The notes beneath the pieces are model-generated. The model had not been told where the DNA came from. It saw only the letters and a program-made list of their open reading frames with translations, and did no database searches. From assembly GCA_965198005.1 (NCBI GenBank), contig CBDAOI010000002.1, positions 352,001 to 416,000 on the forward strand: a stretch of DNA of 64,000 nucleotides. The letters run 5' to 3'. Below, one piece after another: positions 16,294 to 48,331 of this stretch. This DNA comes from Spirochaetia bacterium. Lineage in GTDB: Bacteria > Spirochaetota > Spirochaetia > SZUA-6 > Bin103. How positions within the stretch are numbered: the stretch's first letter is position 1; every line of letters begins with the position of its first letter. The position numbers and the translations under genes are program-made.

Positions 16294-19631
<3,338 letters not shown>

Positions 19632-22678: not shown

Positions 22679-22680
22679 GG

Positions 22681-27055: not shown

Positions 27056-27103
27056 CGTACGCGCTTCCAAACCAGCCGCCGTCGGTGGTACAATACGTTC
27101 GCG

Positions 27104-27821: not shown

Positions 27822-31035
<3,214 letters not shown>

Positions 31036-31057
<22 letters not shown>

Positions 31058-31962
31058 CCGACCGACTCGCGGCCGGACCTGCGGTCGCGCCGGTCCAGGA
31101 GCGCTGCCGGGTGCTGGCCAACCGCGTGGTGGCGCCCGAACACAACCTGCTGACCGTCGCCACGCGTGCCATCGGGCGGCGTGCGCAGGCCGGGCAGTTC
31201 GCCCAGATCCGGGTACCCGGCGACGCGGTCTTCCTGCCGCGCCCGTTCAGCTTCCTCGCCGCGGAAGGCGATCGGTGCGCGTTCCTGTCGCGCGCGGTGG
31301 GGCCGGGCACGCGCGCGCTGGCGGGCTTGGCCGAAGGCGCGGAGATGGAGCTGCTCGGGCCGCTGGGGCAGGGGTTTGATCTGGCCGCGGCCGCGGCGGG
31401 CGAGGTGATCCTGGTGGGCGGCGGGGTCGGAGTGCCGCCGCTGGTGCACGCCGCGGCCGAGCTGGCGCCGCGGACCGGCACCGCGCTGATCGGCGCCGCC
31501 CGCGGCGAGCTGCTGCTGTGCGGGGAGGAGTTCGCCGACCTCGGCTGGCAGGTGCAGGTGGCCACCGACGACGGCTCGCGCGGCCACCACGGGCTGATCA
31601 CCGAGCTCCTGGAACAAGCGCTGGCGCGCGCTACGGGGCGGGTTGAGGCCGTTTCGGGAAATGCAACGACGCCGCAGCACACGGACCAGATCCTTGCGCG
31701 CGCTGCCGGGCAGGGCCGGCGGCGTCCGACCGTGCTGGCATGCGGTCCGCATCCGATGCTCCACCGCTGCGCCGAACTGGCCGCCGCGACCGGCGCCGCA
31801 TGCCAGGTCGCCCTGGAAGAGCCGATGGCCTGCGGCTTCGGCGTCTGCCTCGGCTGCGCCATCCGCGTCCGCCCGCCCGCCTCCAACTGCTCGCCCGGCA
31901 CCGCCTACGCCCTGGTCTGCCGTGACGGCCCGGTGTTCCCCGCCGACCAAGTGCTGTGGTAA
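31036..31962 (+). CDS. pyrK: Dihydroorotate dehydrogenase electron transfer subunit
   Basis: RPFS, GPLG, GGGVG.PP, EEPMACGFGVCLGC...C.DGPVF; start approximate. Confidence 0.92.
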
Positions 31963-32085
31963 TGGTGGAGGAGCGCTCAGGGATTGGCTCCCCTGCGTGA
32001 GCTGGCGGCGTTTGCCCAGTCCCCGAGTTGACGCTCGGTGCATCGGTTGCGATACTACCAGTACGCTTGCTGGGGAGGACTAGCC

Positions 32086-32595
32086 ATGGTGTCAGACGTG
32101 GTCCGTCGTCAGGTCTGGAATCAACTTCAGGAATCTGTCAGGCATTCTCGGTACTTCGCTCGTTTGATAAGCAACATGAACAGATACCATCGGGCTAGAC
32201 TGATAGTGCTCGCTTTAGTCTCCGTATCAGGCGGCGCCAGTTTCATTGTTCAGGATCTTCCAGGGTACGTCGGTGCTGTCGCTGGTTTCGCCATTGCAGT
32301 GTTCTCGGTATGGATCATTCTGGCGGATCACTCGCAAAAGCTCGCCACCGTAAAGTACGTTAGCAGGCGGTTTCAAGAGATAGAAGTCGATGTCCGTGAT
32401 TGTTGGGTCCTCATAGAAGATGGACGAATCGACAACGAATCCGCTCACCGGAGATGGAACGATGCTGAGCGTGCGATCAACGACGCGGTCGAAGACTGGA
32501 AAGCTTCAGGAATGTCGATTAACGACAGGCTGAACGAGAAAAGTGAGGAAGAGTCGGTTCGTTTGGTGAAGGAGGAGTTTTCTTATGCCATCTGA
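32086..32595 (+). CDS. Two-TM SLATT-like hypothetical protein
   Basis: RBS GGAGG; helix-2TM-helix architecture; lower GC than the flanks. Confidence 0.6.
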   Translation: MVSDVVRRQVWNQLQESVRHSRYFARLISNMNRYHRARLIVLALVSVSGGASFIVQDLPGYVGAVAGFAIAVFSVWIILADHSQKLATVKYVSRRFQEIEVDVRDCWVLIEDGRIDNESAHRRWNDAERAINDAVEDWKASGMSINDRLNEKSEEESVRLVKEEFSYAI

Positions 32596-32731
32596 AAACT
32601 CGAATCCGGAGCAGCGCGGCATGCCCAGGCCGGGAAAGACACCGCTGGCACCGCCGCCTCCACGGCCGTCACCACCGAAACCTGATCCTTCTGCGCCGCG
32701 GAAACCACCGGCGGAGAAGCAGAAACGATGA
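32585..32731 (+). CDS. 48-aa proline-rich peptide
   Basis: AGGAGGAG RBS; MPSENSNPEQRGMPRPGKTPLAPPPPRPSPPKPDPSAPRKPPAEKQKR; overlaps the upstream stop. Confidence 0.5.
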   Translation: MPSENSNPEQRGMPRPGKTPLAPPPPRPSPPKPDPSAPRKPPAEKQKR

Positions 32732-32839
32732 CGTTCTTCCTCATGTGGTAAGCAAGCTGCGTCTTCGTACCAGCAAGTTCAAGACCCCCCATGTGAGCGG
32801 TCTCATCATTCCCGCGCGTGACGACTGAGCAATCCGGTT

Positions 32840-33871
32840 ATGTATAACGAAGCGCAGGCGAGCAGGACAACGGTCGGTAGCGCGGCAGCCAACCGCGGTC
32901 GTGACGGGTCTCCATCGAAGGGCCGGCTGGCGGTCAGCCTCGGGCCTTTGCGGTTGGCCAATCCGGTGCTGGTTGCATCCGGGACGTTCGGTTACGCCAA
33001 CGAGTTGGCGGGGCTGGTGGATCTGCAGCGATTGGGCGGGATCGTCACCAAGACTGTCACGGTGAAACCACGGCCGGGCAATCCGCCGCCGCGCATCGTG
33101 GAGACGCCGTCCGGGATGCTCAATGCCATCGGTCTGCAGAACGTCGGCATAGAGCGGTTCGTGACCGAAAAGCTGCCCTATCTCGCCGAGCTGGATCCGG
33201 TCGTGCTGGTGTCGATCATGGGCTACACAATCGGCGAGTTCGTGGCCCTGGCCGAGCGGCTGGATGGGCTGCCGGGGGTGGATGGGCTGGAGCTGAACCT
33301 CTCCTGTCCCAACGTCGCCTACGGCGGTGGCGGTGGCGCGAAGATGTTCGCCCACGATCCGAAACTGACCGCAGAGGTAGTCCGTGCGGTGCGTGCGGTG
33401 ACCGGCCTGCCGGTAATTGCGAAGTTGGGACCGGACGTGGCCGACGTCGCCGCCATCGGCCGTGCCGCCGTGGCCGCGGGAGCGGATGCGCTGGCGGTGA
33501 TGAACACCATTCCCGGCATGGTGATCGACACCAAGCGGCGGCGGCCGGTGCTGGCCAACGTCACCGGCGGGCTGTCCGGGCCCGCGGTCCGGCCGATCGC
33601 GGTGCGGCTCACTTACGAACTGGTGCGCGCGGTGTCGACCCCGGTGGTCGGCGTCGGCGGGATCATGGATCACCGCGATGCGCTGCAGTTCCTGCTGGCC
33701 GGGGCGTGCGCGGTGCAGGTCGGCACCGCCACCTTCACCAACCCACGCGCCGCGCTGGAGGTGCTGGACGGACTGGAGCGCTACCTCGACGAGGCCGGCG
33801 TGGAGCGGCTCAGCGATCTGATCGGGGCGGCGCAACCTTCCGCCATAATAAGGGAGCAACCTGATGAATAG
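32840..33871 (+). CDS. pyrD: Dihydroorotate dehydrogenase class 1B
   Basis: ASGTFG, NAIGLQN, ELNLSCPN, GGLSGPAVRP. Confidence 0.96.
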   Translation: MYNEAQASRTTVGSAAANRGRDGSPSKGRLAVSLGPLRLANPVLVASGTFGYANELAGLVDLQRLGGIVTKTVTVKPRPGNPPPRIVETPSGMLNAIGLQNVGIERFVTEKLPYLAELDPVVLVSIMGYTIGEFVALAERLDGLPGVDGLELNLSCPNVAYGGGGGAKMFAHDPKLTAEVVRAVRAVTGLPVIAKLGPDVADVAAIGRAAVAAGADALAVMNTIPGMVIDTKRRRPVLANVTGGLSGPAVRPIAVRLTYELVRAVSTPVVGVGGIMDHRDALQFLLAGACAVQVGTATFTNPRAALEVLDGLERYLDEAGVERLSDLIGAAQPSAIIREQPDE

Positions 33872-34670
33872 AGGCATCGGCTCACCGTCCAGAGTGGCGC
33901 CCGCACCCGGGGCGGAGCCCGGCACCCCTTCGGTGTCACCGCCTCCCGAGTGGTTGATCGTCGGCCTCGACCTGCCGGACCTGGAACAGGCGCGGCCGCT
34001 CGTGCGGACCCTCGCCGGCCGCGTCGGCGCGCTCAAGATCGGACCGGTGCTGTTCACCCGTGCCGGGCCGGCAGCCATCGATCTGGTGCACGAGCACGGG
34101 CGGCCGGGTGTTCCTCGATCTGAAGTGGTACGACATTCCCAACACCGTGGCGGGCGCTTTCCGCGCGGCCGCGGCGCAAGGTGTGTGGATGGTCAACGTG
34201 CACGCGGCCGGCGGCGAGCGCATGCTGGCCGCCGCTCGGGAGGCCCTGGAGCAGGCCGGGCAACCCGGCACCGCGCGCCGCCCCCTGCTCATCGCCGTAA
34301 CCGTCCTGACCAGCCTGGACGCCGCCGACCTGCCCGCCACCGGCGTCACCGGCTCCGTCCGGGGCAGGTGGAACGCTTGGCCGCCCTGGCGGAGCGTGGC
34401 GGAGCCGACGGCTTGGTCACCTCCGGCCACGAGGCAGCCGGGCTCCGCGCCCGCTGGCCGCAATTCAACCTGGTGGTGCCCGGCGTGCGCCCGCGGTGGC
34501 TTACCGCCAGCGGCGCCACCCCGGCCGACGATCAACGCCGCATCGCCACACCCGCCGCCACGCTTGCGGCCGGTGCCAGCCACATCGCAATCGCCCGTCC
34601 CATCATCACCCACCCCGACCCGGCGCAGGCCGTCCACCTCACTGTGCAGGAAGTTGCCACCGGGAACTGA
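33864..34670 (+). CDS. pyrF: OMP decarboxylase with two compensating frameshifts
   Basis: [14 protein letters not shown] and VTVLTS are out of frame between G-runs at ~34100 and ~34363; PGVR, DDQRR are in frame. Confidence 0.9.
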
Positions 34671-34698
34671 AACCCACGGACGCGCAAGACGCGACAGG

Positions 34699-35667
34699 AT
34701 GGCACCGCTGTACGTAACAGAAGCCGGTGTTCTCGGGCGCGCGGCTCTCGACAGCTACTGTCTACGCTCGGTGCAGGCGGCCATCGCGCTGGACGTGCAG
34801 CTTGGCGAGCCCTCGAATCCGGCGGAGTGGCGGTACCGCCTCAGCGTCGTGCAGGACAATCAACGCCAGCCGCGGATCAAGGAGGAACGAGTCGAACGGC
34901 GGGGCCAGGCGGTGCTTCGTCGGCCTGACGCCGACGACGAGAAAGACTCGGAGCGCCTGCGGCAGACTCACCTGGAAGGAATCAGCACGAACAAGACCTT
35001 TCGCGAGATCTACCGGTTCTTCAACTCGATACGGTACCTCCACGTTCTTCCCCCACTGGTGCGGCAGCCGGAGCGGTTCACCGGCCGGGATTTTTCCGGG
35101 GAGACGTTCGGTAGCGACTTCCTGGAACAGGTCGCACGCAGCACTCCGAAAACTCGCCAGTCGCGGCTGCGGCGAATCGAGAGCGCGCTCCGCATCGCCG
35201 TGCCTCAACTGCGGGAACTGAAGCTGGAGAAGGACGAAATAGGGATTCCACATCTGGAAGGCCGCTATGAGCATTGGCGGCCGAATGCGGGCTGGCAGCG
35301 GGAGGATCAGTTCTCCGACGGCACCCTGCGGCTGATGGCCCTCTTGTGGTCTGTGATGGACGGCACCGGCCCTTTGATGATCGAGGAGCCGGAGCTGAAC
35401 CTGCATCCCGCGGTGGTGAAGTTCCTGCCGCAGATGCTCCACCGGGCCACGCGGCGGTCGAAGCGCCAAGTGATTGTCTCCACGCATTCGCCGGATTTCC
35501 TGCATGACGGAGGGATAGCGTCCGACGAGACGCTCTTGCTGCGCCCTGACAGCAACGGAACACGGGTTGAAGTCGCAGCCGCCGACCCGGAGATCGGACT
35601 TCTGCTGGAGGCCGGAGTATCGCATCTGCAGAGAGGTGGAACTCGAGATTGCGGCGGTTCACGGTGA
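34699..35667 (+). pseudogene. AAA_21-type ABC ATPase lacking its N-terminal Walker A
   Basis: [20 protein letters not shown] present; no GxxxxGKS. Confidence 0.75.
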
Positions 35668-35867: not shown

Positions 35868-36350
35868 CCGGTCCGATCCGGCGCTGCGGCGGCAGGATGC
35901 TCGATCAGAAAAGCGGCGGCCGCCTGGGCCTCCCGGTCAAGCGCGAAGTGCCAGGCGAGCGACAGCAGATTGCGGACTGCCGCGGCGTCGAGCGGTTGCG
36001 GTGAGTTGCGGCGGGACGGACCCCGTTCGGCTTGGGTGCGCAGTTCCAGGGCGCCTGAGATGGTCTGCAGCAGGAGTTGCGTGGCAGCGCGTAGCGCACG
36101 GTGCCACGGGGCCTCCCGGTCTCCGGCTGGAACCCGGCTCAGGCGCCACAGGAGGTCGATTACGCCGTTCGTACGGCGCAGCAGATTCGCGCCGACGAAG
36201 TCCGGCAGCCAGTCGCGGATCGCGACCGGCGTGATGGCATCTCCCGCCTCCTCCCGTAAGACGCCCGTTCCGCCGCCGCGACCAGAGCCTCGGCCACCAA
36301 CCCTTCCAGGGCTGACGACCGGGATGGTATTCGATTTCGAAGTTCGCCAT
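35868..36350 (-). pseudogene. Collapsed third allele of the 2OG-Fe(II) oxygenase
   Basis: MANFEIEYHP start, EALVAAAERA and ITPVAIRDWLP...APDRT segments joined by deletions. Confidence 0.85.
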
Positions 36351-36381
36351 TGATCGTTACGTCCGGCGGGAAGTGTAGTCG
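36328..36381. repeat. 54-bp direct repeat (oxygenase leader + start); partner at 45378-45431
   Basis: One mismatch; includes a TACACT -10-like box and ATG on the minus strand. Confidence 0.9.
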
Positions 36382-36435
36382 GCCATCACCGTCGCTACCA
36401 GGCGCCGGTCCAGTATGCTCGAATCTCCAGCGGCG

Positions 36436-38802
36436 TCACTTCCCGTGCTGGTCGTGAACGGCAATCGCGGCGCGGAGTTGGGCGCGTTCGCCAGCGCCGT
36501 CGGCCACGCGGCCACGCTCGGCCGTCTCCAGCAGCAGACGCATGTGCGCAAGGTCGTCGGCGTACTGCGCGAGCCGCCGCTGGTGACTTGCACGGGTCTT
36601 GGTGCAGACCAACGTGAACGGACGGCCCTTGCGCTCGGTCTCGTGCAGCAGGTCCAGCCCTTCGCGCTTGATGCTTTGATGGACGTGCCGGCGCAACTCC
36701 TGGCGTAGCGGCAGTCGCAGTATCTGCGCCCGCGGGTCGGCGTAGAACTGTTGCAGCCGGCGGCAGTGCTGGCAGCCGCACGAGACCGTGGCCTCCAGCG
36801 CCCAGTCGCGCGGCGCCGCTGGGGGCTGCGCGCTACGAGCTAGCAGAGAGCCGGCGGCATGGCGCCACAGCTTCGCGAACGCCGGGACTGCCGCCGCGCG
36901 CTCGGTGAGCCCCGGAAGGTCCGCCAGCGCCGCCGGCAGCGTGCGGTCGGGCGGGGCCGCGGCGGGGTGCTCGATCAGCAGTTCGGCGGTCGCGTCGGCC
37001 TCCCGGTCAAGTGCGAAGTGCCCGGCGAGCGCCAGCAGGTTGCGGACCGCGGCGCTGTCGAGAGGTGGCGGCGGATTGCGCAGCGACCGATCGCGCCGGG
37101 CATTGGTACGCAGCTCCAGAGCACCGGAGATGTTCTGCAGCAGGAGTTGCACGGCGTCGCGCAACGCACCGTGCCAGGGGGCTTCCTCCTTCCTGTCCGG
37201 AACCCGGCTCAGGCGCCACACGAGATCGATTACGCCGTCGGTACGGCGCAGCAGATTCGCGCCGATGAACTCCGGCAGCCAGTCGCGGAGCGCAATCGGA
37301 GTGATCGCAGCCGCCAACTCCTCATTGACTCCGCCGGAGTACCTCGGCGTGACAATCTCGCGCAGGAAGCGGAGCGTGATGGAGCGGTCACCCAGCCGGC
37401 ACAGCAGCCGCAGTGCGGTGCGGATCTCGGTGCGGCGCCCGCGCGGCGGCTTCGGCCACGCGTCGATGAGCTGCTCGGCGAGGTCGCGCAAACGGCCGGG
37501 CTCGGCCTCGGACTGGTCGCTGCGTTCCAACTCGTCCGCAACGTAGACAACGAACGCACCGATTCCGGCGCCGGCCAGGGCGGTGACGGCCCGTGCCCGC
37601 GGCCACAGCACCAGCGCCGCCGAGCGGTATGCGCGCTCGATCTCCACGCCCGCGTTGCCGGTCGCCTCGCTCACCGACTCATCGTCCGGTTGGGCGTCGT
37701 CCAGAGCGCCGACGGGTAGCAGTTCGCCCGATCCCAGCGGCAGCTTGCCGTAGTCCGGCCTCATGTCGTCCGGCGCCACCCAGTCGTCGAGCCAGTGCTC
37801 GGAGTCGATCACCTCGCCGGCCTCCAGGTCACTGTCGCCAAGCTTGAACCCGTACGGCAGGTCCTGCGGGTACTCCGAGGCGTAGTACACCTTAACGTGG
37901 AGAATCGCGGCGTAGAGGGCGCAGTCCGCGCGCCGCGCCGCCTCCGCCAGAGTGCGGGCAACGGCCGCGTCGACGTTCTTCAAGGCCCCGAACGAGAGCC
38001 CCGCCTCGCTGTAGTCGTGCTCCAGCAGCCAGACGATTTTATTGCGGTCGTGCGTAGCATGATCCCACTGCTGCAGCAACGCGGCAATGCGCCCCGTCAC
38101 GGCGTCGTAGTCGGGTGCCCGCTCCAGCGCGCCGTGAGCGGCTCCGCGCAGCACGAGTTGGTAGACCAGGACGATGCGGTGGCCGGTGGCGACCGGCCGG
38201 GTCTCGTGCATGCAGTCGGCGTAAAACGCCGCGAAGGCAAGCTCCGACGGGTCCTCGGTGCGCAGGTCGATCACGGTCTCATGCTCCCGGTGGCGAATCA
38301 CCAGCTCGCCGCCCGTCCCGGCGACCGGCAGCGAGATCACCAGCGTGGCGACCATGCCGATCGCCTTCTCGCTGTCGCGGTGGGCGCTGAAGAACCCGCC
38401 CGGCTCGTAGACCAGCAGCTTGTAGAGGCGCGCCTCGGTGCGCTCGCGCGGGCAGCCGAGTCCCTCGGCGGCACGGCCGACGATCTGCGCCAGCGTGTCA
38501 CTCCATGCCCCGCCGCCCACGGCCACCTTGTCTGCGTCGATCTGCCAGCAATCGCGTACCGAACGGTCCAGCACCGTGTCCGGCCCCCGGCCGTACGGCG
38601 CCCGCGCCGCGGCCGCGATCAGATCCTGCACCTGCGCCGCGGGCACCGGAAAGGAAATCAGTCCCGCACCCGCCACCTCCAGGCGCGGCAGCGGCACTGC
38701 CAGCCGCCCGTGGGTGCAATACTCCCCCGGACGGTCGATCGACTGCAGCAATTCCCCCAAGGCGGATTGCCCGGGGTGGTACTCGATTCCGACGTTCGCC
38801 AT
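36436..38802 (-). CDS. Large 2OG-Fe(II) oxygenase-domain protein, copy A
   Basis: YKLLVY..GGFF..HRD, GGELVIRH, HETRPV..GHR; C-terminal CGCQHC...RRH...CTK. Confidence 0.88.
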   Translation of the reverse strand: MANVGIEYHPGQSALGELLQSIDRPGEYCTHGRLAVPLPRLEVAGAGLISFPVPAAQVQDLIAAAARAPYGRGPDTVLDRSVRDCWQIDADKVAVGGGAWSDTLAQIVGRAAEGLGCPRERTEARLYKLLVYEPGGFFSAHRDSEKAIGMVATLVISLPVAGTGGELVIRHREHETVIDLRTEDPSELAFAAFYADCMHETRPVATGHRIVLVYQLVLRGAAHGALERAPDYDAVTGRIAALLQQWDHATHDRNKIVWLLEHDYSEAGLSFGALKNVDAAVARTLAEAARRADCALYAAILHVKVYYASEYPQDLPYGFKLGDSDLEAGEVIDSEHWLDDWVAPDDMRPDYGKLPLGSGELLPVGALDDAQPDDESVSEATGNAGVEIERAYRSAALVLWPRARAVTALAGAGIGAFVVYVADELERSDQSEAEPGRLRDLAEQLIDAWPKPPRGRRTEIRTALRLLCRLGDRSITLRFLREIVTPRYSGGVNEELAAAITPIALRDWLPEFIGANLLRRTDGVIDLVWRLSRVPDRKEEAPWHGALRDAVQLLLQNISGALELRTNARRDRSLRNPPPPLDSAAVRNLLALAGHFALDREADATAELLIEHPAAAPPDRTLPAALADLPGLTERAAAVPAFAKLWRHAAGSLLARSAQPPAAPRDWALEATVSCGCQHCRRLQQFYADPRAQILRLPLRQELRRHVHQSIKREGLDLLHETERKGRPFTLVCTKTRASHQRRLAQYADDLAHMRLLLETAERGRVADGAGERAQLRAAIAVHDQHGK

Positions 38803-39259
38803 CGTTCGTTACGCTCGCACGGGAGTGTATCCTGGCTGGCCGTCGGCCAGCCACCGAGGCGAATGCACGCGCGAGCAGACTGGCCGCCCTCGGCGAGCTG
38901 ACCGCCGGCGTCGCGCAAGAGATCACGACCTCGCTGGTGCAGACGCTGCCGATGGCGGCGCGCGTCATCTCCCGGCCGAGCAGCGCGGTCTCCCTGGCGC
39001 GTTCAGCCTCGATACCAACGAGATGTTCGCGGAGTGATGCGGGGCGCGGCGGTCGGCATTGGCGCGCCGAGCGATACGGTTCGGGTGCGGCTCTTTTAGG
39101 ACGACCCCAGAGGGGGGTGAGGTGGCCTGAAGGGGAGCAGGCATTCGCTCAGTCAGACGGATGCGGCGCACTGCGATCGAGTGGTGAGATGCCCGCGGGA
39201 CTCTGCCGAGCCTTCAGCCGCCAACGCGTGACCCGCCTTCCACAGGTATTCCAGCACGT

Positions 39260-40758
39260 GAAAGATGTCGGGCTGTCGCCATCGGCGGCCAGCTTCGGCT
39301 GCAGATCGCCGAGTCCTTCGCGGCCGAAACCGCGGCGTACTTCCTGCAGCAGTTCGACGCCCCGGCGCTGGAAGCAGAACACGTAGCTCTCGTCCAGCAG
39401 CGGTCGCCGGTCTTGCGCGCGTAGGGCTGGCGCAGGATACGGCCCACGAGCTGGGTCAGCGCGCGCTTCGAGCTGGGACGGGTCAGAATCGCCAACACGT
39501 AGGCGAACGCACAGTCCCACCCCTCCTGCAGCGCCTGCTTGGCGATGATGAAGCGGATCGGGCAGTCGCGCCCCAAGAGGCCCCCGGAGCCGGCGTCGTC
39601 CACCTGCTTCAGGTCGTCGCGCGCGCTGGTCTTGATGGCGATCTGTTCTGCGGCGATGTCCGGATGCTCCAGCAGGTACTCGCGGGCGTCCTCGGCGTGC
39701 ACGACCCCCGGTTGACGCTGGTCGCGGCCGGTGCGCTCCACCTGAATCAGGCAGATCGGTCGAATATCAATGCCGGTGGCGGCCTCGTGCCGCCGGGCGC
39801 GCTGCTCCAGCTTTGCCCGGTGCTCGATCGCGGCCAGCAGGGTGTCCTTCCAGCTTGCGCTCGACCGATTCTTGATGTTCAAGTCGAGCTTGATCATCTG
39901 TTCCGCGTTCAGGTCCCGGCCCAGAATCTCGATCAGCACGTTGGCCTCGGCGGTCGGGGTCGCCGAAAGCTCGACGATGAGGGAGGGATTGAACCCCTCC
40001 AGCGTCGCCTTGGCGTTGCGGCTGTACGCCTTGTGCCCCTCGTCGAGCACGATCATGGGACGCAGCAGGCGCAGCGTGTTGCCCAGCGAGGTCTTGACTT
40101 GCCGCCCCCAGAAGCCGCCCGCCGACCCGGCGGTTCCGAACGGGTCGAGGTTGGGTACCCGCTTCAGCAGAGCGGCATGCCCCTTGACGTCGTCGTCGCC
40201 GGGGAAGAAGCGATCGAAACCGCCGCTGTCGCGGAACATTCGCAGTTGTTCCTTGGTCTCGCGGTTGGCCGACGGCAGCATCAGCAGCAGGATGCACAGG
40301 TGGTCGGCCACGTCGGCCGGTGCGAAGCCGCTACGCTTCTCCGGAATCATGGTGCGCCCGGCGGAGGCCAGATCGAGTTGCTGGCGGTAGGGATGGTCGC
40401 GGTCCTTGAGCGCCATGAGGGTCTGGCGGTAGATCTGCGTGGTCGGCACGACCCACAGCACGAGCGGTCTGCCGATAGAGGAACTTGCTGTTGACCAGAT
40501 CGATAACGCGCGTCGCCAGCAGCGTCTTGCCGCCACCGGGGGAATCTTCAGGCAGAATGACGGCAGCGGCTCACCGGTACCGGTGGTGCGCCGGTGGTAG
40601 TCGCGTGCCGGCACCGCCGTCTCCCACGCTTCACGCACCCAATCGAGATTCGGGTGGGACGCGCGAGCTTGCGCCGCCAACGTGCGCTGGCGCGCAAGCT
40701 CACTCAGGAGACCGCGCACCGCGGCCAGTGTGCGCCGCTGAAACTCCTTGAGGATCAT
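39260..40758 (-). pseudogene. res: Type III restriction Res subunit, N-terminal helicase part
   Basis: Walker A GGGKT out of frame near 40535; LDEGH, SAT, LQEGWD, QLVGRILR; truncated at the 3' end. Confidence 0.85.
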
Positions 40759-41012
40759 GTGGCGCGCTGCACGCCGCCGCTCGCAAAGCTCTCGATCGCC
40801 TGGTAGATCTGGAACGGCAACTGGCAGAAGGAGATGCGGTACTCCTCCAGAAATTCCTCGTCCAGGTACTTGGTGGCTGCGAACACCAGCCGGTCGGAAC
40901 GCCTCGGCTTGGGCAGCGAACGGGCGAACTCCAGCGTGAGCGCCAAGTCCTTGATCTTTTCCCTATCCGGCTCGTAGATCAGGTACACCGGTCCGTCAGT
41001 CGACGGCAGCAT
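40755..41012 (-). pseudogene. mod: Type III Mod C-terminal remnant
   Basis: VYLIYEPD..LALT..RLVFA..KY..FCQLPFQIY; ATGA overlap with res. Confidence 0.7.
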
Positions 41013-41047
41013 CCAGGGCCGTGCGGTTGGCCGTCAAGCGCGCGATT

Positions 41048-41497
41048 TCAGTACGGGCTGGCGGACTCGTCCCCTTCCGCCACGCCCCGCACCGCGAACC
41101 CGACAGCGCGGGCGGCCGTCCCCAACTGCCCGTCGTGGGTCAGAAACTCGTCGATCTGGCGGTTGCGTCGCTCATGGACGACGAGCGCACTTGTCAGGTG
41201 AATAGCATCCAACGTACCGACGACCGTCGGGAAGGACCGGCTTGCCCGGGTGAGGAGTGCGGCGGAAACGCGGACCCGGTAGACGGATTTCCAGAACGTG
41301 ACGAACCGCTCGTGCACAAAGACACGTTCGTGATCATTCAGGTCGCCGCCGAGGCGGAGCCGGTCGATAGTCCGGTGAAACTCGACCCGGCAGATCTCGC
41401 TGGTGTAGGCGGCCTGCCAGTGTCCCCACTCTTCGAGCGACGGATCCTGGTTGAGCAACCAGCTCAGCACCACCGACGTGTCGAGGTAGACCGTCAT
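41048..41497 (-). CDS. vapC: VapC/PIN toxin
   Basis: YLDTS, VE, TLDAIHL, THD. Confidence 0.88.
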   Translation of the reverse strand: MTVYLDTSVVLSWLLNQDPSLEEWGHWQAAYTSEICRVEFHRTIDRLRLGGDLNDHERVFVHERFVTFWKSVYRVRVSAALLTRASRSFPTVVGTLDAIHLTSALVVHERRNRQIDEFLTHDGQLGTAARAVGFAVRGVAEGDESASPY

Positions 41498-41745
41498 CGC
41501 CGCCTGCGGTCGGCCAGCAGCGCGGCTACCCCCGGAATGGATCTGCCGGACGGTAAGCGGTCGAGGCGGGCAAGCGCCTCGGGTGGTTCGGTCGGCTCTT
41601 CGATGAGCAACTCCTCTTCGACGGCCGGGACCAACCTGGCAACGCTCTGACGGTAGGAGGTGATGTCAATCGTGGCTCCCGTTCGCACCATCCCAAGGTA
41701 CGTTCCGAGCCGAGACTTCAACTCTGCGGTACTGACTTGGATCAT
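41494..41745 (-). CDS. Phd/YefM antitoxin
   Basis: VSTAELKSRLGTYL..V..G..I.IT...VARLVP. Confidence 0.85.
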   Translation of the reverse strand: MIQVSTAELKSRLGTYLGMVRTGATIDITSYRQSVARLVPAVEEELLIEEPTEPPEALARLDRLPSGRSIPGVAALLADRRRR

Positions 41746-41783
41746 GACCGCATCTTGGTCAAGCCATGGACAATGTTCAAGGG

Positions 41784-44183
41784 TCAAACATCGGGGGTTT
41801 GCCCATTCCTCGTAGACTGAACGGCAATCGCGGAGCGGAGTAGATCGAGCTTGCCGGAGTCCACGGTATTTCCCACGTGGGCACGCTCGGCGGTCTCTAC
41901 CAGCAGGCGCATGTGCGTAATGTCCTCCGCGTACTGCGCAAGCCGCCGCTGGTGACCGGCGCGCGTCTTGGTGCAGACCAGCGTGTAGGGACGGCCCTTG
42001 CGTTCGGTCTCGTGGAGCAGGTCGAGCCCGTTACCGTCGATGATCCCGTGGAGATGCCGGCGCAGTTCCTTGCGGAGCGGAAGCCGCAGCACTCTCTCCC
42101 GCGGGTCGGCGTAGAACCGTTGCAGTTCGCGGCAATGCGGGCACTGACACGAAATCGAGGCCCCCAGCGCCCAGTCGCTCGGTGCCGCGGGCGGCCGCGC
42201 GCTCCTTGCCAGCAGGTAGCCGGCGGCATGGTGCCACAGCGCCTTGAACGCCGGGGCTGCCGTTGGGCGCTGCGGCAGGACCGCAAGTTCCGCCAGCGCC
42301 GCCGGCAGCGTCCGATCGGGCGGCGCGGCTACCGGGTGTTCGATCAGCAGTGCCGCGGCTGCGTCCGCCTCTTGAGCCAGATCGAAATGCCACGCGAGGG
42401 CCAACAGGTTGCGGATCGTGGCGGCGTCCACGGGTGGCGGAGGTTTGCGCAGAGATCGATTCCCGTGGGCGTTGGTCCGCTGCTCCAGGGCGCCGGAGAT
42501 GGTCCGCAACAGGAGTTGCGTGGCGTTGCGCAGTGCGTCGTGCCAGCCCGCGTCCTGCCCCTCGGCCGGAACCAGGATGAGCCGCCATACGAGATCGATC
42601 ACACCATCCGTGCGCGACAGCAGATTGGCGTCGATGAATTCCGGCAGCCAGTCGCGGAGCGCTGCCGGGGTAACCACCGCGGCCAACTCGGCGTTCAGCC
42701 CACCGGAGTAGATCGCCGTGGTAACGTCATGCAGGAAGCGGAGCGTGATGGACTGGTCACCCAGCCGGCACAGCAGCCGGAGCGCGGCACGGCAGCTCCG
42801 TTCGACATCCGTCCGGCGCCCGGGCGGCGGCGCCGGCCACGCGTCGATGAGCTGCGTGGCAAGGTCGCGCAGGCGGCCATGCGCGGCCTCCGAATGGTCG
42901 TTGCGTTCCAACTCCTCGGCGACGTAGGCGACGCTGGAGCCGATACCGGCGCCGGCCAGCGTGGCGACGGTCCGTGCGCGCGGCCACAGCACCAGCGCCG
43001 CCGAGCGATACGCGCGCTCGATTTCGACCCCCGCGTTGCCCGTGGCCTCGTTCACCGACTCGTCATCCGGATCGGCGTCGTCCAGAGCGCCGACGGGCAG
43101 CAGTTCGCGCGCCCGCAACGGCAGCTTGCCGTACTCCGGCCTGACGTCGTCCGGCGCTACCCAATCATCGAGCCAGTGCTCGGAATCGAGCACCTCCCCG
43201 GCCTCAAGATCGCTGTCGTCCAGGTCGACACCGTAGGGCAGGTCCTGCGGGTACTCCGCGGCGCAGGACTCCTCGATATGCAGAATCGCGGCGTACAGGG
43301 CACAGTCCGCGCGCCGAGCCGCTTCGGCCAGGGTCCGAGCCACTGCGGCGTCGGTGTTCTTCAAGGCCGAGAACGAGAGCCCCTCCTCGCTGTACTCGTG
43401 CTCCAGCAGCCAGACGATCTTCTCCGCGCCCTGCGTGCTACGGTCCCACTGCGCCAGCAGGGCTGCGATGCGCTCCGTCAGCACGTCGTAGTCGGGTGCC
43501 CGCTCCAGCCCGCCGTGGTCGCCGCCGCGCAGCAGCAGTTGGTAGACCAGAACGATGCGGTGGCCGGTGGCGACCGGCCGGGTCTCGTGCACGCAGTCGG
43601 CGTAGAATGCCGCGAAGGCCAGCTCCGAGGGATCCTCGGTGCGCAGGTCGATCACCGCCTCATTCTGCTTGTGGCGGATCACCAGCTCGCCGCCCGTGCC
43701 GGCGACCGGCAGCGAGATCACCAGCGTTCCGACCATCCCGGTCGCCTTCTCGCTGTCGCGGTGGGCGCTGAAGAACCCTCCCGGCTCGTAGACCAGCAGC
43801 TTGTAGAGGCGCGCCTCGGTGCGCTCGCGGGGGCAGCCGAGTCCCTCCGCTGCGCGGCCGATGATCTGCGCCAACGTCTCGCTCCATGCCCCGCCGCCCA
43901 CGTCGACCTTGTCCGCGTCGATCTGCCAGCAGTCGCGGACCGATCGGTCCAGCACCGTCTCCGACCCCCTGCCGTACGGCGCCCGTTCCGCCGCCGCCAC
44001 CAGAGCCTCGGCCTGGGCGGGCGGAACCGGAAAAGGAATCAACCCGGCGCCCGCAACCTCCAGGCGCGGTAGCGGCGCGAACAGCCGGCCATGGGTGCAG
44101 TACTCGCCGGGGCGGTCAATTGATTCCAGCAACCCTTCCAGGGCTGATTGAGCGGGATGATATTCGACTTCGAAGTTGGACAT
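41784..44183 (-). CDS. Large 2OG-Fe(II) oxygenase-domain protein, copy B
   Basis: Full-length paralog of 36436-38802; HRD...H...R motif; CQCPHC. Confidence 0.88.
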   Translation of the reverse strand: MSNFEVEYHPAQSALEGLLESIDRPGEYCTHGRLFAPLPRLEVAGAGLIPFPVPPAQAEALVAAAERAPYGRGSETVLDRSVRDCWQIDADKVDVGGGAWSETLAQIIGRAAEGLGCPRERTEARLYKLLVYEPGGFFSAHRDSEKATGMVGTLVISLPVAGTGGELVIRHKQNEAVIDLRTEDPSELAFAAFYADCVHETRPVATGHRIVLVYQLLLRGGDHGGLERAPDYDVLTERIAALLAQWDRSTQGAEKIVWLLEHEYSEEGLSFSALKNTDAAVARTLAEAARRADCALYAAILHIEESCAAEYPQDLPYGVDLDDSDLEAGEVLDSEHWLDDWVAPDDVRPEYGKLPLRARELLPVGALDDADPDDESVNEATGNAGVEIERAYRSAALVLWPRARTVATLAGAGIGSSVAYVAEELERNDHSEAAHGRLRDLATQLIDAWPAPPPGRRTDVERSCRAALRLLCRLGDQSITLRFLHDVTTAIYSGGLNAELAAVVTPAALRDWLPEFIDANLLSRTDGVIDLVWRLILVPAEGQDAGWHDALRNATQLLLRTISGALEQRTNAHGNRSLRKPPPPVDAATIRNLLALAWHFDLAQEADAAAALLIEHPVAAPPDRTLPAALAELAVLPQRPTAAPAFKALWHHAAGYLLARSARPPAAPSDWALGASISCQCPHCRELQRFYADPRERVLRLPLRKELRRHLHGIIDGNGLDLLHETERKGRPYTLVCTKTRAGHQRRLAQYAEDITHMRLLVETAERAHVGNTVDSGKLDLLRSAIAVQSTRNGQTPDV

Positions 44184-44289
44184 CGATCACTACGCTTGGT
44201 GCGGGAGTGTAGCCCACGTGGTCGGCGCCTCGCCACCGGCCGTGAATGCATACACGATGGTCTGCACAGGTCGGCTCGGGTAGCGGGCG

Positions 44290-44617
44290 ACTCGGCACGC
44301 GAGCGTGGCCTGCGCTACCAGTCTGTGGCCGACAGGGTCCACCGTTACGGCGAAGCCTTCCAGGGTTCGGACGCCCAGCAACACCTGATCGCCCCTCCGC
44401 CCGAACACTACCTCGTCGGTGGTCTCGTACCCTTCGGCGCGCACGATGGCGTACCCGATCTCGCGCTGCAGCCGTTCCCCGGAAGCCGTAACGAAGGTTC
44501 GCTTGCGCCGCGGCGATGCCGATTGCGGTCACCAGCCACGCTCGGATCCGGTAGATCGGTTCGGCGCGTCTCGTTCTTCGGATTCACCGCCACGACGCTT
44601 ACCCTGAATGCGCTCAT
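44290..44617 (-). pseudogene. Clan AA aspartyl-protease-like small gene, degraded
   Basis: MSAFRVSVVAVNP, TGSE remnant, DEVVFG..D..LLGVRTLEGF..VDPV; several indels. Confidence 0.6.
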
Positions 44618-44798
44618 CGGCCCTGGCACGTATCATATCACTTTCGAGCTGGCGGCGCCCATGTCCGGTACGTATGGTGATGCCTGTGACGCCGGCGACG
44701 TTTGAGCAGGTACGACGGGACGGCGTAATCTGAGCGCAGGATTTAAGGAGAGGTCAGGTCATGAGTCCCACCCTTCTTCCGCCCGTCTTGGGAAGCCT

Positions 44799-44858
44799 GT
44801 GAAGTCGGGGTTGGTAGCCGCGAAGGCCCGTGGCAAGCGCCTTGGGCGCCCGCCTGGT
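44799..44858 (+). mobile_element. Serine recombinase (resolvase/invertase) fragment
   Basis: VKSGLVAAKARGKRLGRPPG. Confidence 0.6.
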
Positions 44859-44880
44859 CATCCAGTCTGATCGCCGTATG

Positions 44881-45431
44881 CCGCCGCCCACGTCGACCTT
44901 GTCCGCGTCGATCTGCCAGCAGTCGCGGACCTGATCGGTCGCCCCTGCCAGCAGCGGCACCAGGCGTCTCCGTAACGAACTCCTCGGTAGCCGTACTACC
45001 CAAGATATCCGATTCCGTTCACGCCGACTCGCGCCATCAGCCAACAGCAACGAAACCGCATCTTCACTGAACGCGTTCGTGCTAACGTCCGGAAGTTCAG
45101 GAATCACGAAGTGGAGTAACACGTTCCTGAACTTAGATCTCGGCTTGTTGCGACGAAACCTTAAGTGAAAAGGAATCAACCCGGCGCCCGCAACCTCCAG
45201 GCGCGGTAGCGGCGCGAACAGCCGGCCATGGGTGCAGTACTCGCCGGGGCGGTCAATTGATTGCCGGCCAGCAACCCTAATCCCAGACATGCCCATGTCG
45301 CGTTCAACGATTTCGGCGAGGTCGGAGCGTGCGGCGCAAAGGGGTTGAAGAGCCGGCAACGGGAGTACATGTTGCGCTATTCGATTTCGAAGTTCGCCAT
45401 TGATCGTTACGTCCGGCAGGAAGTGTAGTCG
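44881..45431 (-). repeat. Three ordered pieces of the oxygenase 5' end interleaved with foreign DNA
   Basis: 44881-44940 matches 43891-43949; 45167-45262 is identical to 44030-44125; 45378-45431 is the leader. Confidence 0.88.
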
Positions 45432-45499
45432 ACTGGCCGGCGACGCGCCATCGACGCGAATGTTCGGTGTGGAGCGGCACGACCCTAATCGGTGCCGCC

Positions 45500-46245
45500 G
45501 GCGCCGCCGGCCCACCGCCCGCCAGCTCGGTGAGCCGGCGCTGCCATTCGGCTTCGTCGACTACCTCGAAACGCATCGACTTGCCCTGCATCGCCGAGAC
45601 GAACTCGGCCCAATCGCGCCGGGTGGCATGCTGCGAGCAGATGTCGAACACCGAGCGCTTGTATTCGGTGTCGGCGGCTTCCTTGAGGTGCAGGCCCTTG
45701 GTTTCGACCACGAACACCTGATGGAAGGCGTCGTCGGTGTCCGGATCGTCGGGCTTCAGGGTGAAGATGAAGTCGGCGTAGATCCGTCCGCGCTTCCAGC
45801 CCTGGACGTAGTAGTCCTGGCGCGCGCGGTTGCGGTACCAGAAGAACAGACGCTCCTGCTGGTCGTGAAAGGTGGCTACCCGATTCTCCAGCTCGTTCAG
45901 GTCCTCCTCGCTCGTACGGTCGAACAGATTGAGCAAGTACTGGCCGCCGTCGTCACGGTTGGCCTGCCGGCCGGCGCTGGTCTTGATCTGTCGGGGAAGA
46001 CGATTGAAGCCCAGGTCCTCGGCCGCCACGATGAACCGCATCGTGCCGTCTTCGAGCAGCTCGGTGAACACGCCACGCGTCAGCCGGTCGCGTTCGGCCT
46101 CCAGACGTTTGTGCAACTCCTCCAGGATGAAGCCGTAGTTGCCGCAGACTTCCTACAACAATTCGACGCCGCGGCGCTGGAAGCAGAACACGTAGCTTTC
46201 GTCCAGCCACCGGTCGCCGGTCTTGCGCGCATGGGGGCTGGCGCT
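45500..46245 (-). pseudogene. res: Type III Res, C-terminal nuclease part (second allele)
   Basis: IYADFI..VVETKG, DTEYK; 46152-46243 is a diverged match to 39345-39435. Confidence 0.8.
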
Positions 46246-46370
46246 GGTTGAGCGCCAGGACCGCGTGTGCCGTAGTCCCCGATCCGGCGAACGAGTCAAG
46301 AATGATGGAGTCTTCGTCGGCAGACAGCCTTATCACTTGCTTCAGTAGCTCAACCGGCTTAGTGGTCGTG
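46246..46370 (-). pseudogene. mod: Type III Mod methyltransferase fragment
   Basis: KPVELL...IILDSFAGSGTTAHAVLALN. Confidence 0.8.
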
Positions 46371-46544
46371 ATGATGTCGGAAACGTCGACCGCAACCCGG
46401 CGCTGGAGCTGAGCCTCAGGGCGGACCCAGCGGAGTCCCAGGAGACCTTGACCCAGCTCGCGGTGGCGCGGCTGATCGAGTTCCTGGAAGACCAACAACA
46501 GGCCAGCCGCGAGGGGCTGCAGGCGACAGCCAGGTAGTGGTGGT

Positions 46545-46934
46545 TCATGCTCCCGCCCACGGGTCGATTACTTCTATCTCTGTTCCTGAGAAATCCTGAA
46601 CATTCCGCGTCGCCACGGCCATGCCTCGCGATCGCGCGATGGCCGCTATCTGACAATCCGCTTGCGAGATTGGACGCCCAACGGCACGACGGACGGCGGC
46701 AATATCCGCATAGGAGCGGGCCGCGGTGCTGTCGAACGGCAGAACCCGCCCGGCGAACAGACTGCCGAGTGTTCGTTCGGCAGCGTCAGCGAGATTCCGG
46801 CGGCGTGCACCCTCGGACAGAAAGGCTATACCAGTGCGGACCTCTGCCTCCGTCACCGCCGTCACGAAAAACTCCTGAGCTGGCCGACTGTCCATCCAGG
46901 CAAGAACCTCCGGATGTGGAGAATCGAGCATCAT
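46545..46934 (-). CDS. FitB-like PIN toxin, possibly with a short N-terminal deletion
   Basis: TEAE, ADCQIAAIA, VATRNVQDF; the usual TNV.SE after LD is missing. Confidence 0.8.
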   Translation of the reverse strand: MMLDSPHPEVLAWMDSRPAQEFFVTAVTEAEVRTGIAFLSEGARRRNLADAAERTLGSLFAGRVLPFDSTAARSYADIAAVRRAVGRPISQADCQIAAIARSRGMAVATRNVQDFSGTEIEVIDPWAGA

Positions 46935-47149
46935 TTCGGATGCGGTAACTCCAACTCAACCCCACCGAAGGGTTTGAACAGTTCGTGGATAGCCGTACCC
47001 AAGCCCTTCGCGGGCACGTCCTCCTGTCCGACGACCTCGCGCAGAATCAACCGCACTTCCTCTTCCATGGAACGGCCATTGTCCGCCGCCCGCACGCGCA
47101 GCCGCGTCTTTACCTGGTCGTCGAGATTGCGAATCGTGATACTCGCCAT
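46931..47149 (-). CDS. FitA-like antitoxin
   Basis: MASITIRNLDD.VK.RLRVRAA.NGRSMEEE.R.IL. Confidence 0.88.
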   Translation of the reverse strand: MASITIRNLDDQVKTRLRVRAADNGRSMEEEVRLILREVVGQEDVPAKGLGTAIHELFKPFGGVELELPHPK

Positions 47150-47297
47150 GATCGATCATGCCCCCGTCAGTACAATCCACCCTACATGGATGCTTGCGAT
47201 GCAATCAAGCGCTGAGCGCCTCAACGAAAGCATCCTACCGGAGCATCTGGCGCCATGACAGGAGTATCACCGATGACGCGCGGCCTGGCAAGAACGC

Positions 47298-47400
47298 GTT
47301 ACCCCTCAATGCTGCCGATCATGACGCCCTTGACGAGGTAGCGCTGGATCAAGGGGTAGACGCACAGGATGGGGGTGACGGCAACCACGATCATCGCCGT
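47298..47400 (-). pseudogene. Carbohydrate ABC permease C-terminal scrap
   Basis: MIVVAVTPILCVYPLIQRYLVKGVMIGSIEG*; next to an oxygenase scrap (QYCTHGRLFAP, ~47416-47450). Confidence 0.7.
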
Positions 47401-47527
47401 ATTCAGGCGTGGTCACCGGTGCGAACAGCCGGCCATGCGTGCAGTACTGCCGGCGCCGCCCGGCGGGGTTGTGGCCGTTGTCCCGGAGGGGCCGTGCCGA
47501 GTAGTATTGTGTACGGCGAGTACGGAG

Positions 47528-48271
47528 ATGGCCTTCACCGTAGCCGATGTTCGGGATTTGGTGCGATTGCTGGACGAACAGCCGGACTGGCGTGCCGAGG
47601 TCCGCCGGCAACTTCTCACCGACGAGTTGCTGGCCATGCCGGAGCAGATCGCCCAGCAGCGGCGAGACATCCAGCGGATCGAAGAGCAGATTGCCCGGCA
47701 GCGGCGAGACATCCACCGGATCGAAGGACAGCTCGTGGAGCAGCGGCGAGCAACAGATCGGCGTTTTCAGCAGGTCGAAGATCAGATCGCCGCTCTGACC
47801 CGTACCGTCGACACCCTCACGAACGACGTTGGCGAACTGAAAGGAGACAGTCTGGAGCGCCGCTACCGCGAGAAGGCCGGCGCCTACTTCGGCCGTCTGC
47901 TGCGGCGTACCCACGTCCTGAGCGACGACGAACTGAACAAGCTGCTCGACGACGCGGTCGCGCAGGGGGTGCTCACCGAGGACGAGTGCGATGAAGTGAT
48001 CTGGGCCGACGCCATCGTGCGCGGCCGGCGCCGTGGCGACCGCGCACAGGTGGTGGCCGTCGCCGAGGTCTCGTGGGGCGTAGGAATCAAAGACGTGGAA
48101 CGCGCGTCGCGCCGCGCGGACCTGCTGGCCCGGGTCGGCTTCACCACCCTGCCGGTCGTGGGCGGCAAGGCGGTGACCCGAGAGGCGGCGGAGCTGGCCC
48201 GGCAGAAAGGGGTGTGGCAACTGTTCGACGGCAGGCTGGTAGCCCCCGACGCGGCCGGCGAACCGGAATAG
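47528..48271 (+). CDS. Coiled-coil protein with a degenerate PD-(D/E)xK-like C-terminus
   Basis: DLVRLL...W..EVRR.LLTDELL, 14-aa repeats, LKGDSLE, ADAIVRG..AEVS. Confidence 0.75.
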   Translation: MAFTVADVRDLVRLLDEQPDWRAEVRRQLLTDELLAMPEQIAQQRRDIQRIEEQIARQRRDIHRIEGQLVEQRRATDRRFQQVEDQIAALTRTVDTLTNDVGELKGDSLERRYREKAGAYFGRLLRRTHVLSDDELNKLLDDAVAQGVLTEDECDEVIWADAIVRGRRRGDRAQVVAVAEVSWGVGIKDVERASRRADLLARVGFTTLPVVGGKAVTREAAELARQKGVWQLFDGRLVAPDAAGEPE

Positions 48272-48331
48272 ACTGCGCCCCGCCTTCCGGTAGCGCGCCG
48301 GTTGCCGCCCGACGTGCTCGTACTGGTCGCG

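Follow-up and report, generated by a model that had tools for sequence, protein, structure and literature searches.

This report concerns an islet of genes in a Spirochaetia genome of high GC content (~63-74%), located inside the window G000:C2:352001-416000, i.e. the whole stretch of 64,000 nucleotides (nt) that we have analysed: two large genes for 2-oxoglutarate- and Fe(II)-dependent (2OG-Fe(II)) oxygenases, oxyA and oxyB, are found there in tandem, each next to a toxin-antitoxin (TA) pair and to remnants of type III restriction-modification (R-M) genes, which we refer to as mod' and res'. An earlier note on this DNA had tied the oxygenase functionally to type III R-M and had proposed a candidate defence or DNA-modification system; we conclude that the repeated pairing is a footprint of the construction of the islet, and not a system.

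Content of the islet and state of its genes

On the minus strand, the order TA > mod' > res' > oxygenase occurs twice between positions 47149 and 36436, as the earlier note had described and as the list of open reading frames (ORFs), Pfam and PADLOC bear out (Table 1); the matches are long and specific, and they are not due to chance. Both oxygenase genes are intact, with 610/789 residues (77%) identical between their products, a third allele has collapsed (the copy at 35870-36381), and further 5' pieces are scattered through the islet, as has been established with tblastn, blastn and repeat families; in these points the earlier note has held. The scraps at 44881-44940 and 45167-45278 are 98% and 95.5% identical to 5' parts of oxyB, while the scrap at 45378-45431 is a copy of the start/leader, 98% identical to 36328-36381. 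In the right unit, this leader copy, at 45431, is situated ~100 nt past the end of the Res homology (~45535), in agreement with the claim that an oxygenase leader follows directly upon the end of res.

Neither unit contains a complete Mod or a complete Res, and neither type III R-M set can be functional; both are dead cargo. In the left unit, res' matches the PADLOC model REase_III at positions 61-476/883 (E 2e-111) and mod' matches MTase_III at positions 582-651/654; in the right unit, the ORF 45953-46498 matches MTase_III at positions 388-433/621 and the ORF 45304-46116 matches REase_III at positions 737-877/883, with mod' also matching positions 163-204/221 of the Pfam model N6_N4_Mtase. 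On the scale of the proteins of the genome's own intact type III pair (tblastn with C4:1875420-1879797), a Res of ~900 amino acids (aa) is represented by aa 30-526 on the left and aa 698-859 on the right, and a Mod of ~613-697 aa by aa 544-608 on the left and by aa 391-434 only on the right; the remnants derive from two different R-M alleles, which have been gutted in different ways. The divergence of the two res alleles, which the earlier note had also claimed, is seen as 89% identity over an overlap of ~100 nt only (39339-39436 vs 46148-46247; blastn). As in known type III R-M operons, the remnants match both Mod and Res models, and the left mod' and res' retain the 4-nt overlap of the intact operon junction; unlike such operons, both sets are incomplete, each lacking different parts. 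An extra C after position 39397, where the Res homology of the left remnant ends, is carried by a subset to the majority of the contig depth in four sequencing runs; across the population, res' may not always be read in one and the same frame.

The earlier statement that the R-M genes decayed while the oxygenases survived is correct at this locus, but it does not extend to a rule: other oxygenase copies, in this genome and in its relatives, have stops or are fragmentary.

With respect to the TA pairs, the FitA-like and PIN ORFs on the right overlap by 4 nt and both match their Pfam families; the VapC models of NCBIfam match the right PIN toxin only below their cut-offs. The left pair is less certain than the right one, because its Phd-like match is below the cut-off. 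At the islet edge, the presence of an ATPase remnant has been confirmed: residues 236-522 of the ORF 34060-35667 match the PADLOC model HEC-01A (PDLC04180) at positions 72-362/382 (E 6.4e-103), without the N-terminal ~70 profile positions, and Pfam AAA_21 at positions 47-300/304; the remnant is convergent to the minus-strand TA, R-M and oxygenase genes. The right-flank ORF 47369-48271 has no Pfam match; it holds two tandem 42-nt units (47642-47725, 93% identity). Upstream of oxyB, the ORF 44116-44532 had been considered as a retropepsin-like candidate, an assignment that we have dropped, since Pfam gave no match.

Table 1. Parts of the islet and its two flanks, in window coordinates.
Feature	Position	Strand	Description
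pyrF	33864-34670	+	Left flank of the islet, conserved; synteny with L010/L013, tblastn with the L010 product
AAA_21/HEC-01A-type ATPase remnant	34765-35667	+	Within ORF 34060-35667
Collapsed third oxygenase allele	35870-36381	-	Start/leader, aa ~57-75 and aa ~492-625
oxyA, intact, 788 aa	36436-38802	-	Prolyl-4-hydroxylase (P4H)-like 2OG-Fe(II) oxygenase with long C-terminal extension
Left res'	39214-40758	-	N-terminal half of type III Res, tail non-homologous
Left mod'	40755-41012	-	Last ~65-85 aa of type III Mod
Left PIN toxin	41048-41497	-	Pfam PIN 25.8 bits (cut-off 23.6)
Left Phd/YefM-like antitoxin	41494-41787	-	Probable ATG at 41745; Pfam 19.8 bits (cut-off 29.8, not reached)
oxyB, intact, 799 aa	41784-44183	-	Copy that clusters with the pyrF-adjacent L010 orthologue
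Oxygenase 5' scraps	44881-45431	-	aa ~81-101, aa ~20-52 and start/leader; stretch variable in the population
Right res'	45535-46247	-	C-terminal piece (aa ~698-859, about 45535-46131), then upstream a ~100-nt piece common with left res'
Right mod'	46244-46375	-	44-aa internal piece of type III Mod (aa 391-434)
Right VapC (PIN) toxin	46545-46934	-	Pfam PIN 39.4 bits
Right FitA-like ribbon-helix-helix antitoxin	46931-47149	-	Pfam PF22513, E 8.2e-21
Oxygenase 5' stub, 53 nt	47404-47456	-	87% identical to oxyB 44061-44113 (blastn); adjoins the right flank
Right-flank ORF, 300 aa, conserved	47369-48271	+	Beside the single oxygenase in L010

History of the locus

The closest public relatives are metagenome-assembled genomes (MAGs) of Spirochaetia, and the window, between 30 and 56 kb, has been compared by blastn with the four closest loci. 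In locus L010, the gene order is pyrD, pyrF, (GNAT), one oxygenase and a homologue of the window ORF 47369-48271, with the right flank of the window (47476-48276) aligning to L010 9848-8869; in locus L013, pyrF is located downstream of a single oxygenase, and a copy of the Phd-like stretch, at 90% nt identity, upstream of it. It follows that the site is conserved, with a single oxygenase as its normal state, and that it has been expanded here. The nt identity of L010 to the window is 82-84% in the flanks and in oxyB, and 77% in oxyA. In a maximum-likelihood tree of 24 rows, oxyB and L010 form a clade with 100/100 support, and a 17-row clade (99/98) holds oxyB and not oxyA; the synonymous divergence (dS) between oxyA and oxyB is 0.50, compared with 0.46-0.65 to homologues from the genomes of other species. 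The two copies are thus as far apart as copies from different species and are not sisters in the tree, and therefore they are not a recent in-situ duplication; the claim of distinct alleles is upheld.

The reading that we prefer, with somewhat more than even confidence, takes the locus for a variable islet: at a chromosomal site that is conserved, bounded by pyrF and the gene of the 300-aa flank protein, imported alleles have been stacked, and the oxygenases are stand-alone genes. DNA from other lineages would have recombined in more than once, carrying its own oxygenase allele together with upstream cargo (a TA pair and type III R-M genes), with crossovers within the 5' part of the oxygenase gene or close to it; the outcome would be the two full, non-sister alleles in tandem, the one collapsed copy, the two differently gutted R-M remnants and the oxygenase 5'-part stubs that are seen at the unit boundaries (47404-47456, 45167-45278, 44881-44940 and 36240-36381). 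Variable islands at chromosomal hotspots likewise have fixed flanks and variable content, as does this islet with its TA pairs, R-M debris and ATPase remnant; what sets it apart is that the anchor of the exchange appears to be the oxygenase gene itself, present as two full alleles plus stubs, and that no integrase or transposase is found there.

Several observations weigh against this reading. No recombinase, integrase or repeat-bounded cassette has been found in the islet by family scans, so that the mechanism of stacking is deduced from the stubs only; the oxygenase gene of L010 and L013 is syntenic and has diverged like its housekeeping flanks, which would fit an ordinary chromosomal enzyme too; the order of the tandem over >5 kb is bridged by no contig among the longest ones listed from the sequencing runs; and a second assembly that contains both oxygenases attests to their co-occurrence, not to their adjacency. 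Site-specific tandem accretion, by means of an integrase and att sites, has been set aside: Pfam scans of the islet ORFs gave no integrase or transposase match within 34-48 kb.

It should also be considered whether the tandem is an assembly artefact, i.e. two strain haplotypes of one locus that have been joined head to tail in the MAG: the left unit adjoins the left flank and the right unit the right flank, exactly as a mis-join would have them. We have used Logan contigs of four runs from two studies, with 30 depth bins over 33.5-48.5 kb, and with the longest contigs listed. All 30 bins are covered in the four runs, and the joins between the ATPase remnant and the scrap, and between the scrap and the 3' end of oxyA, are bridged by contigs in 4/4 runs. 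Contig by contig, oxyA, oxyB and the flanks have roughly the same depth (28, 21 and 21-26 in run X2; 8, 13 and 8-10 in run X4), and the flank depth is not the sum of the two copies in any of the four runs; similar depths therefore argue against a join of two haplotypes. The exact oxyA protein is found on three contigs, the longest of 2,065,258 bases, and a contig of identical length carries a 99% variant of oxyB; the second assembly thus holds both oxyA and oxyB, on what appears to be one contig. At 80% nt identity, moreover, the difference between the two oxygenase copies far exceeds strain-level variation. On the other side, depth is low over the stretch 44522-45022, where alternative forms or joints also occur in the four runs, a second locus of the genome likewise has stacked, diverged repeats, and the nearby pyrF points to at least one probable indel problem of the assembly. 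Among the parts for which no bridging contig is listed is the Phd/oxyB junction at 41787, whose exact 50-nt pattern was not found in the metagenome contigs. Taken together, we regard the artefact as very unlikely.

The indel problem consists of two compensating shifts, near 34099 and 34360, that take the reading frame of pyrF through 3>1>3 in the assembly; the Pfam model OMPdecase matches in the shifted frame, in the four runs, a base at 34098 is missing from most of the contig depth, and in run X2 a further G is inserted after 34359. It is more probable that the shifts reflect a pair of assembly indels, or a minor variant, than that pyrF is dead. A second, distant orotidine-5'-monophosphate-decarboxylase-like gene is located at C2:519496-520197 (32% identity). 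Further to the left, the window stretch 21545-33871 contains pyrB, pyrC, a carB-like ORF of only 482 aa and pyrD, with an ammonium transporter gene and a PRiA4_ORF3-family gene intervening; the large subunit of carbamoyl-phosphate synthase may be split or broken there.

A second hotspot of the same genome, C4:2228000-2262000 (L089, L090), contains diverged segmental repeats of 77-98% identity, in the same style of stacking: the duplicated genes encode a solute-binding protein/permease, PNPOx, AbiEii-like and aminotransferase proteins, and one oxygenase copy with a TAG stop is accompanied by two oxygenase pieces, pieces being present at several of the repeats. In a Rhodothermales MAG (L063), both copies of a 2.9-kb direct repeat (9521-12395 and 15325-18198, 95%) contain a complete oxygenase gene, and pieces of TnpB (IS605 OrfB) lie inverted near the repeats. 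At other loci, genes of the same kind bracket the oxygenase, namely HSP20 genes in L011, trigger-factor-like genes in L035 and L044, and dienelactone hydrolase genes in L058, a pattern that points to stacking, or to insertion accompanied by flank duplication, at further sites as well.

The oxygenase protein

Both proteins match the Pfam family PF13640 at aa 128-213 (oxyA 32.6 bits, oxyB 32.4 bits, cut-off 27), and no other Pfam model, including those of AlkB type or TET/JBP type, at E<=0.01; no NCBIfam model matches the oxygenases, and in PADLOC the catalytic core is matched only by '2OG', a generic CRISPR-associated model of 81 positions (E 2.3e-08), no described or candidate defence-system model of PADLOC-DB v2.0.0 matching the oxygenase beyond it. 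In enzymes of this kind, an HxD...H triad binds the iron, and a basic residue binds the C5 carboxylate of 2OG; the corresponding residues, H141, D143, H199 and R209, do not vary in an alignment of 37 family members that come from several phyla (37/37), and by motif the oxygenases are predicted to be catalytically competent. The oxygenases are not only intact, but also under purifying selection, with an omega (ratio of non-synonymous to synonymous rates) of 0.27 overall, 0.17 (0.10-0.20) in the catalytic domain and 0.34 (0.33-0.47) in the C-terminal solenoid.

The AlphaFold model of the full protein (mean confidence score, pLDDT, 87.8) comprises a double-stranded beta-helix (DSBH) at aa ~24-225, a middle alpha/beta part at aa ~231-400, an alpha-solenoid and a small C-terminal alpha/beta part, the extension beyond the catalytic domain amounting to ~570 aa. 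In the structural comparison by VIA-align, the best folds are the prolyl hydroxylase PPHD in complex with EF-Tu (4iw3_A, Z 14.5, root-mean-square deviation 4.4, 178 residues aligned), PiuC (Z 13.5) and PHD2 (Z 13.2), with AlkB (Z 11.7) and OGFOD1/Tpa1 (Z 11.3-11.6) further down; Foldseek also ranks prolyl hydroxylases first (E 6.2e-07), and no TET/JBP row is present among the structural matches shown.

The analogy with AlkB and TET, which the earlier note had drawn, is thus not borne out, given that only the P4H-type PF13640 matches and that the best folds are prolyl hydroxylases. The DSBH domain shares with the prolyl-4-hydroxylases PPHD (4iw3) and PHD2/EGLN1 the fold, the HxD...H triad and the conserved Arg, at a sequence identity of only 13-18%; these enzymes have ~200 aa, whereas the oxygenase family adds the ~570 residues of the middle domain, the alpha-solenoid and the small C-terminal domain. 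OGFOD1 and Tpa1, two-domain prolyl hydroxylases that serve the translation apparatus and act on a ribosomal protein, are likewise multi-domain and P4H-like, but they align to residues 24-225 only, their second domain being unmatched. AlkB has the same superfamily fold, but it ranks below ~30 entries of prolyl-hydroxylase type, and the oxygenase family has no conserved link to DNA methylases. Among the P4H-like 2OG oxygenases, the present enzyme is an uncharacterised variant in terms of architecture.

When the C-terminal 398 aa are folded alone (pLDDT 91.7), they form helical repeats with a small alpha/beta end; this part has no Foldseek match at E<=0.001, and VIA-align returns generic helical-repeat proteins only (best Z 12.7, a designed repeat). 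The sequence of oxyB has no match among solved structures at E<=1, and the ESM Atlas gives only '2OG-Fe(II) oxygenase' clusters, with unnamed clusters for the C-terminal part.

Judged by fold and motifs only, the oxygenase resembles an enzyme that hydroxylates proteins, and not a companion of the R-M genes; as its predicted target, a protein side chain is more probable than a base in DNA. Each oxygenase would most likely work alone: the N-terminal DSBH, with its HxD...H iron site and conserved Arg, would hydroxylate a target that is held by the C-terminal alpha-solenoid. Two points count on the other side: AlkB is only ~3 Z units below the prolyl hydroxylases, and the protein substrate is a preference and not a result, because PF13640 also includes the isoleucine dioxygenase/small-molecule hydroxylase HilA.

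The oxygenase family, its neighbourhoods and its possible role

The family is large: 2366 proteins match at E<=0.001 among 8000 scored candidates, '2OG-Fe(II) oxygenase' is the only source name among the 120 matches listed, 339 relatives are found in species-representative genomes, and the C-terminal module occurs in 3486 representative clusters, nearly always after an N-terminal part of ~400 aa in the full-length hits among the best 150. Its distribution is patchy: within the taxonomic family, 13/24 genomes have the oxygenase, three single-contig genomes of the same genus (95-97% complete) lack it, and other genomes have 2-6 matches, as full copies or pieces, several of them with stops or fragmentary. 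Homologues are present in 24 plasmid records and in 0 of 50,697 phage records. In titles and the beginnings of abstracts, no description of an oxygenase family of ~800 aa was found. A third intact paralogue of the genome, an 842-aa ORF with 54% identity (L088, C4:1257604-1260132), is located between an AAA_16 ATPase and an AAA_21/AAA_15 ATPase, with NOV_C, DUF1156 and DUF433 proteins downstream; this is another defence-island-like setting.

In order to compare neighbourhoods, 283 proteins at positions +-1/+-2 of 75 loci (four proteins of L087 excluded) have been set against a far control of 148 of the 184 proteins selected at positions +-6/+-7. No neighbour is conserved across the family: the top cluster is common to 16/78 loci, a number that includes ABC-transporter ATPases of L012 and L019, and the next cluster to 9. 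None of the 283 neighbours matches REase_III or MTase_III (PADLOC, E<=1e-20), a result that leaves a functional tie between oxygenase and type III R-M unsupported; in the absence of type III R-M within two genes at the 75 other loci, the pairing in the islet is to be read as local history, not as a system. The hits to Pfam ResIII are AEP-TOTE helicases (L017, L019, L053, L068 and L072) and type I HsdR (L042 and L070), and the nearest thing to a type III R-M pairing is one DNA methylase piece beside the oxygenase in L032.

The same counts bear on the original proposal, that oxygenase and type III R-M together form a defence or epigenetic system which oxidises methylated bases in the manner of AlkB or TET/JBP. 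It could draw on the pairing that is present twice in the window, on AlkB being among the structural matches and on the methylase piece of L032, but we consider it highly improbable: besides the empty neighbour count, most of Mod and at least half of Res are missing from both R-M sets of the islet while the oxygenases are under purifying selection, there is no R-M next to the oxygenase gene in L010-L013, the loci most closely related, only a P4H-type Pfam model matches the oxygenases, and the intact type III R-M pair of the genome (C4:1875636-1879737) has no oxygenase match near it in the genome search.

What remains of the proposal is a tendency in the neighbourhoods. Sorted by Pfam name, TA, R-M and defence-type genes make up 34/283 near proteins and 5/148 far proteins (odds ratio 3.9, p 0.002), and in 25/75 loci at least one such gene is no more than two genes away from the oxygenase; PADLOC at E<=1e-20 gives 25/283 vs 6/148 (odds ratio 2.3, p 0.078) and, after the ABC-transporter 'mad3' rows and one TnpB row have been dropped, 21/283 vs 4/148 (odds ratio 2.9, p 0.052). 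Mobile-element genes do not differ significantly (11/283 near, 11/148 far). The enrichment that the earlier note had suggested looking for is thus present by Pfam, and marginal by PADLOC (p 0.05-0.08); the Pfam-name sorting was unblinded, and the loci are related and not independent. The oxygenase, then, is an accessory enzyme with a moderate tendency to adjoin TA, R-M and defence genes, as claimed, but the proposed link to R-M or to AlkB/TET is not supported.

Because the distribution is patchy, multi-copy, plasmid-borne and pseudogene-prone, beside TA and defence genes, a role of the family in genetic conflict is plausible, though the odds are held to be clearly against it. In its most specific form, the oxygenase would be a single-gene defence against phages or plasmids, with the solenoid as the sensor of an invader protein and the hydroxylase modifying a factor of the host or of the invader, e.g. 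a translation factor. We rate this as rather unlikely. It is favoured by the pattern of occurrence just described, on plasmids and in no phage record, by the Pfam-sorted enrichment, by neighbours such as AbiE, BREX pieces, type I R-M, SoFic and AEP-TOTE helicases, and by the faster evolution of the solenoid relative to the catalytic domain (omega 0.33-0.47 vs 0.10-0.20). Against it, the argument is one of guilt by association, the PADLOC enrichment is marginal, the most enriched neighbours are TA pairs, which are general markers of variable islets, and no described-system model matches the oxygenase beyond the generic 2OG model; furthermore, syntenic, vertically evolving copies exist, and the position of the C-terminal module after the N-terminal part, in the full-length hits among the best 150, gives no evident sign of effector swapping.

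The ~790-aa family as a whole might even be a widespread, undescribed single-protein conflict system, an idea that we hold as doubtful: the fast-evolving solenoid would recognise an invader or stress cue, and the prolyl-hydroxylase-like domain would hydroxylate a protein, which could be a translation factor, as EF-Tu is for PPHD. If this were true, bacteria would use protein hydroxylation as an immune effector chemistry of a new kind, and the stacked, diverged alleles, here and at the second locus, would reflect selection for allelic diversity; were the oxygenase to prove a conflict gene, the thousands of family members that are named only '2OG-Fe(II) oxygenase' would also have a function.

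Alternatively, the oxygenase could be an ordinary metabolic or stress enzyme, e.g. a hydroxylase of small molecules or of a housekeeping protein, that borders a hotspot of TA and R-M cassette turnover. This agrees with the position beside pyrF that is conserved in L010 and L013 with flank-like divergence, with the 50/75 loci that have housekeeping neighbours only, with the presence of amino-acid hydroxylases in PF13640 and with the lack of enrichment of mobile genetic elements near the oxygenase. It agrees less well with an oxygenase that roughly half of the genomes in its taxonomic family lack and that has 2-6 matches in others, with frequent pseudogenes, with the lack of a conserved metabolic operon partner and with a 570-aa, solenoid-bearing extension, which would be unusual for a small-molecule enzyme; we consider an ordinary enzyme unlikely. 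Even without a role in conflict, the locus as we read it, a variable islet of stacked alleles, would be a clear case of the growth of a hotspot by stacking imported alleles that are anchored on one gene, and similar 'repeated pairings' elsewhere may be read as history rather than as function.

Some minor observations concern the neighbours of the oxygenase. An AEP-TOTE primase-helicase, where TOTE stands for 'TPR, OB, TBP, Effector' (PMC12458937), occurs within two genes of the oxygenase at five proteobacterial loci (L017, L019, L053, L068 and L072); its orientation varies, L017 and L019 have a DUF559 nuclease domain, and L019 has the helicase-DUF559 part only. The AEP-TOTE model had no match among the islet ORFs scanned, where other TOTE genes were not looked for. 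A small DUF6429 protein is encoded beside the oxygenase in L046, L053 and L082, and in annotated plasmid records the oxygenase is preceded by a gene for a WGR protein (Acidiphilium) or by genes for a helicase and a SWIM protein (Bradyrhizobium). In an alphaproteobacterial branch, a conserved gene for a protein of ~235 aa follows on the same strand, ~40 nt downstream (L055, L059, L072, L074, L076, L077, L078 and L043, and the plasmid locus L091 at 9290-9997); it has no Pfam (E<=1) or PDB match, and its profile was not found in the present genome, which is 90% complete. This protein has CxxC pairs and CHRCGG...ACLRC motifs, and it may be a partner of the oxygenase.

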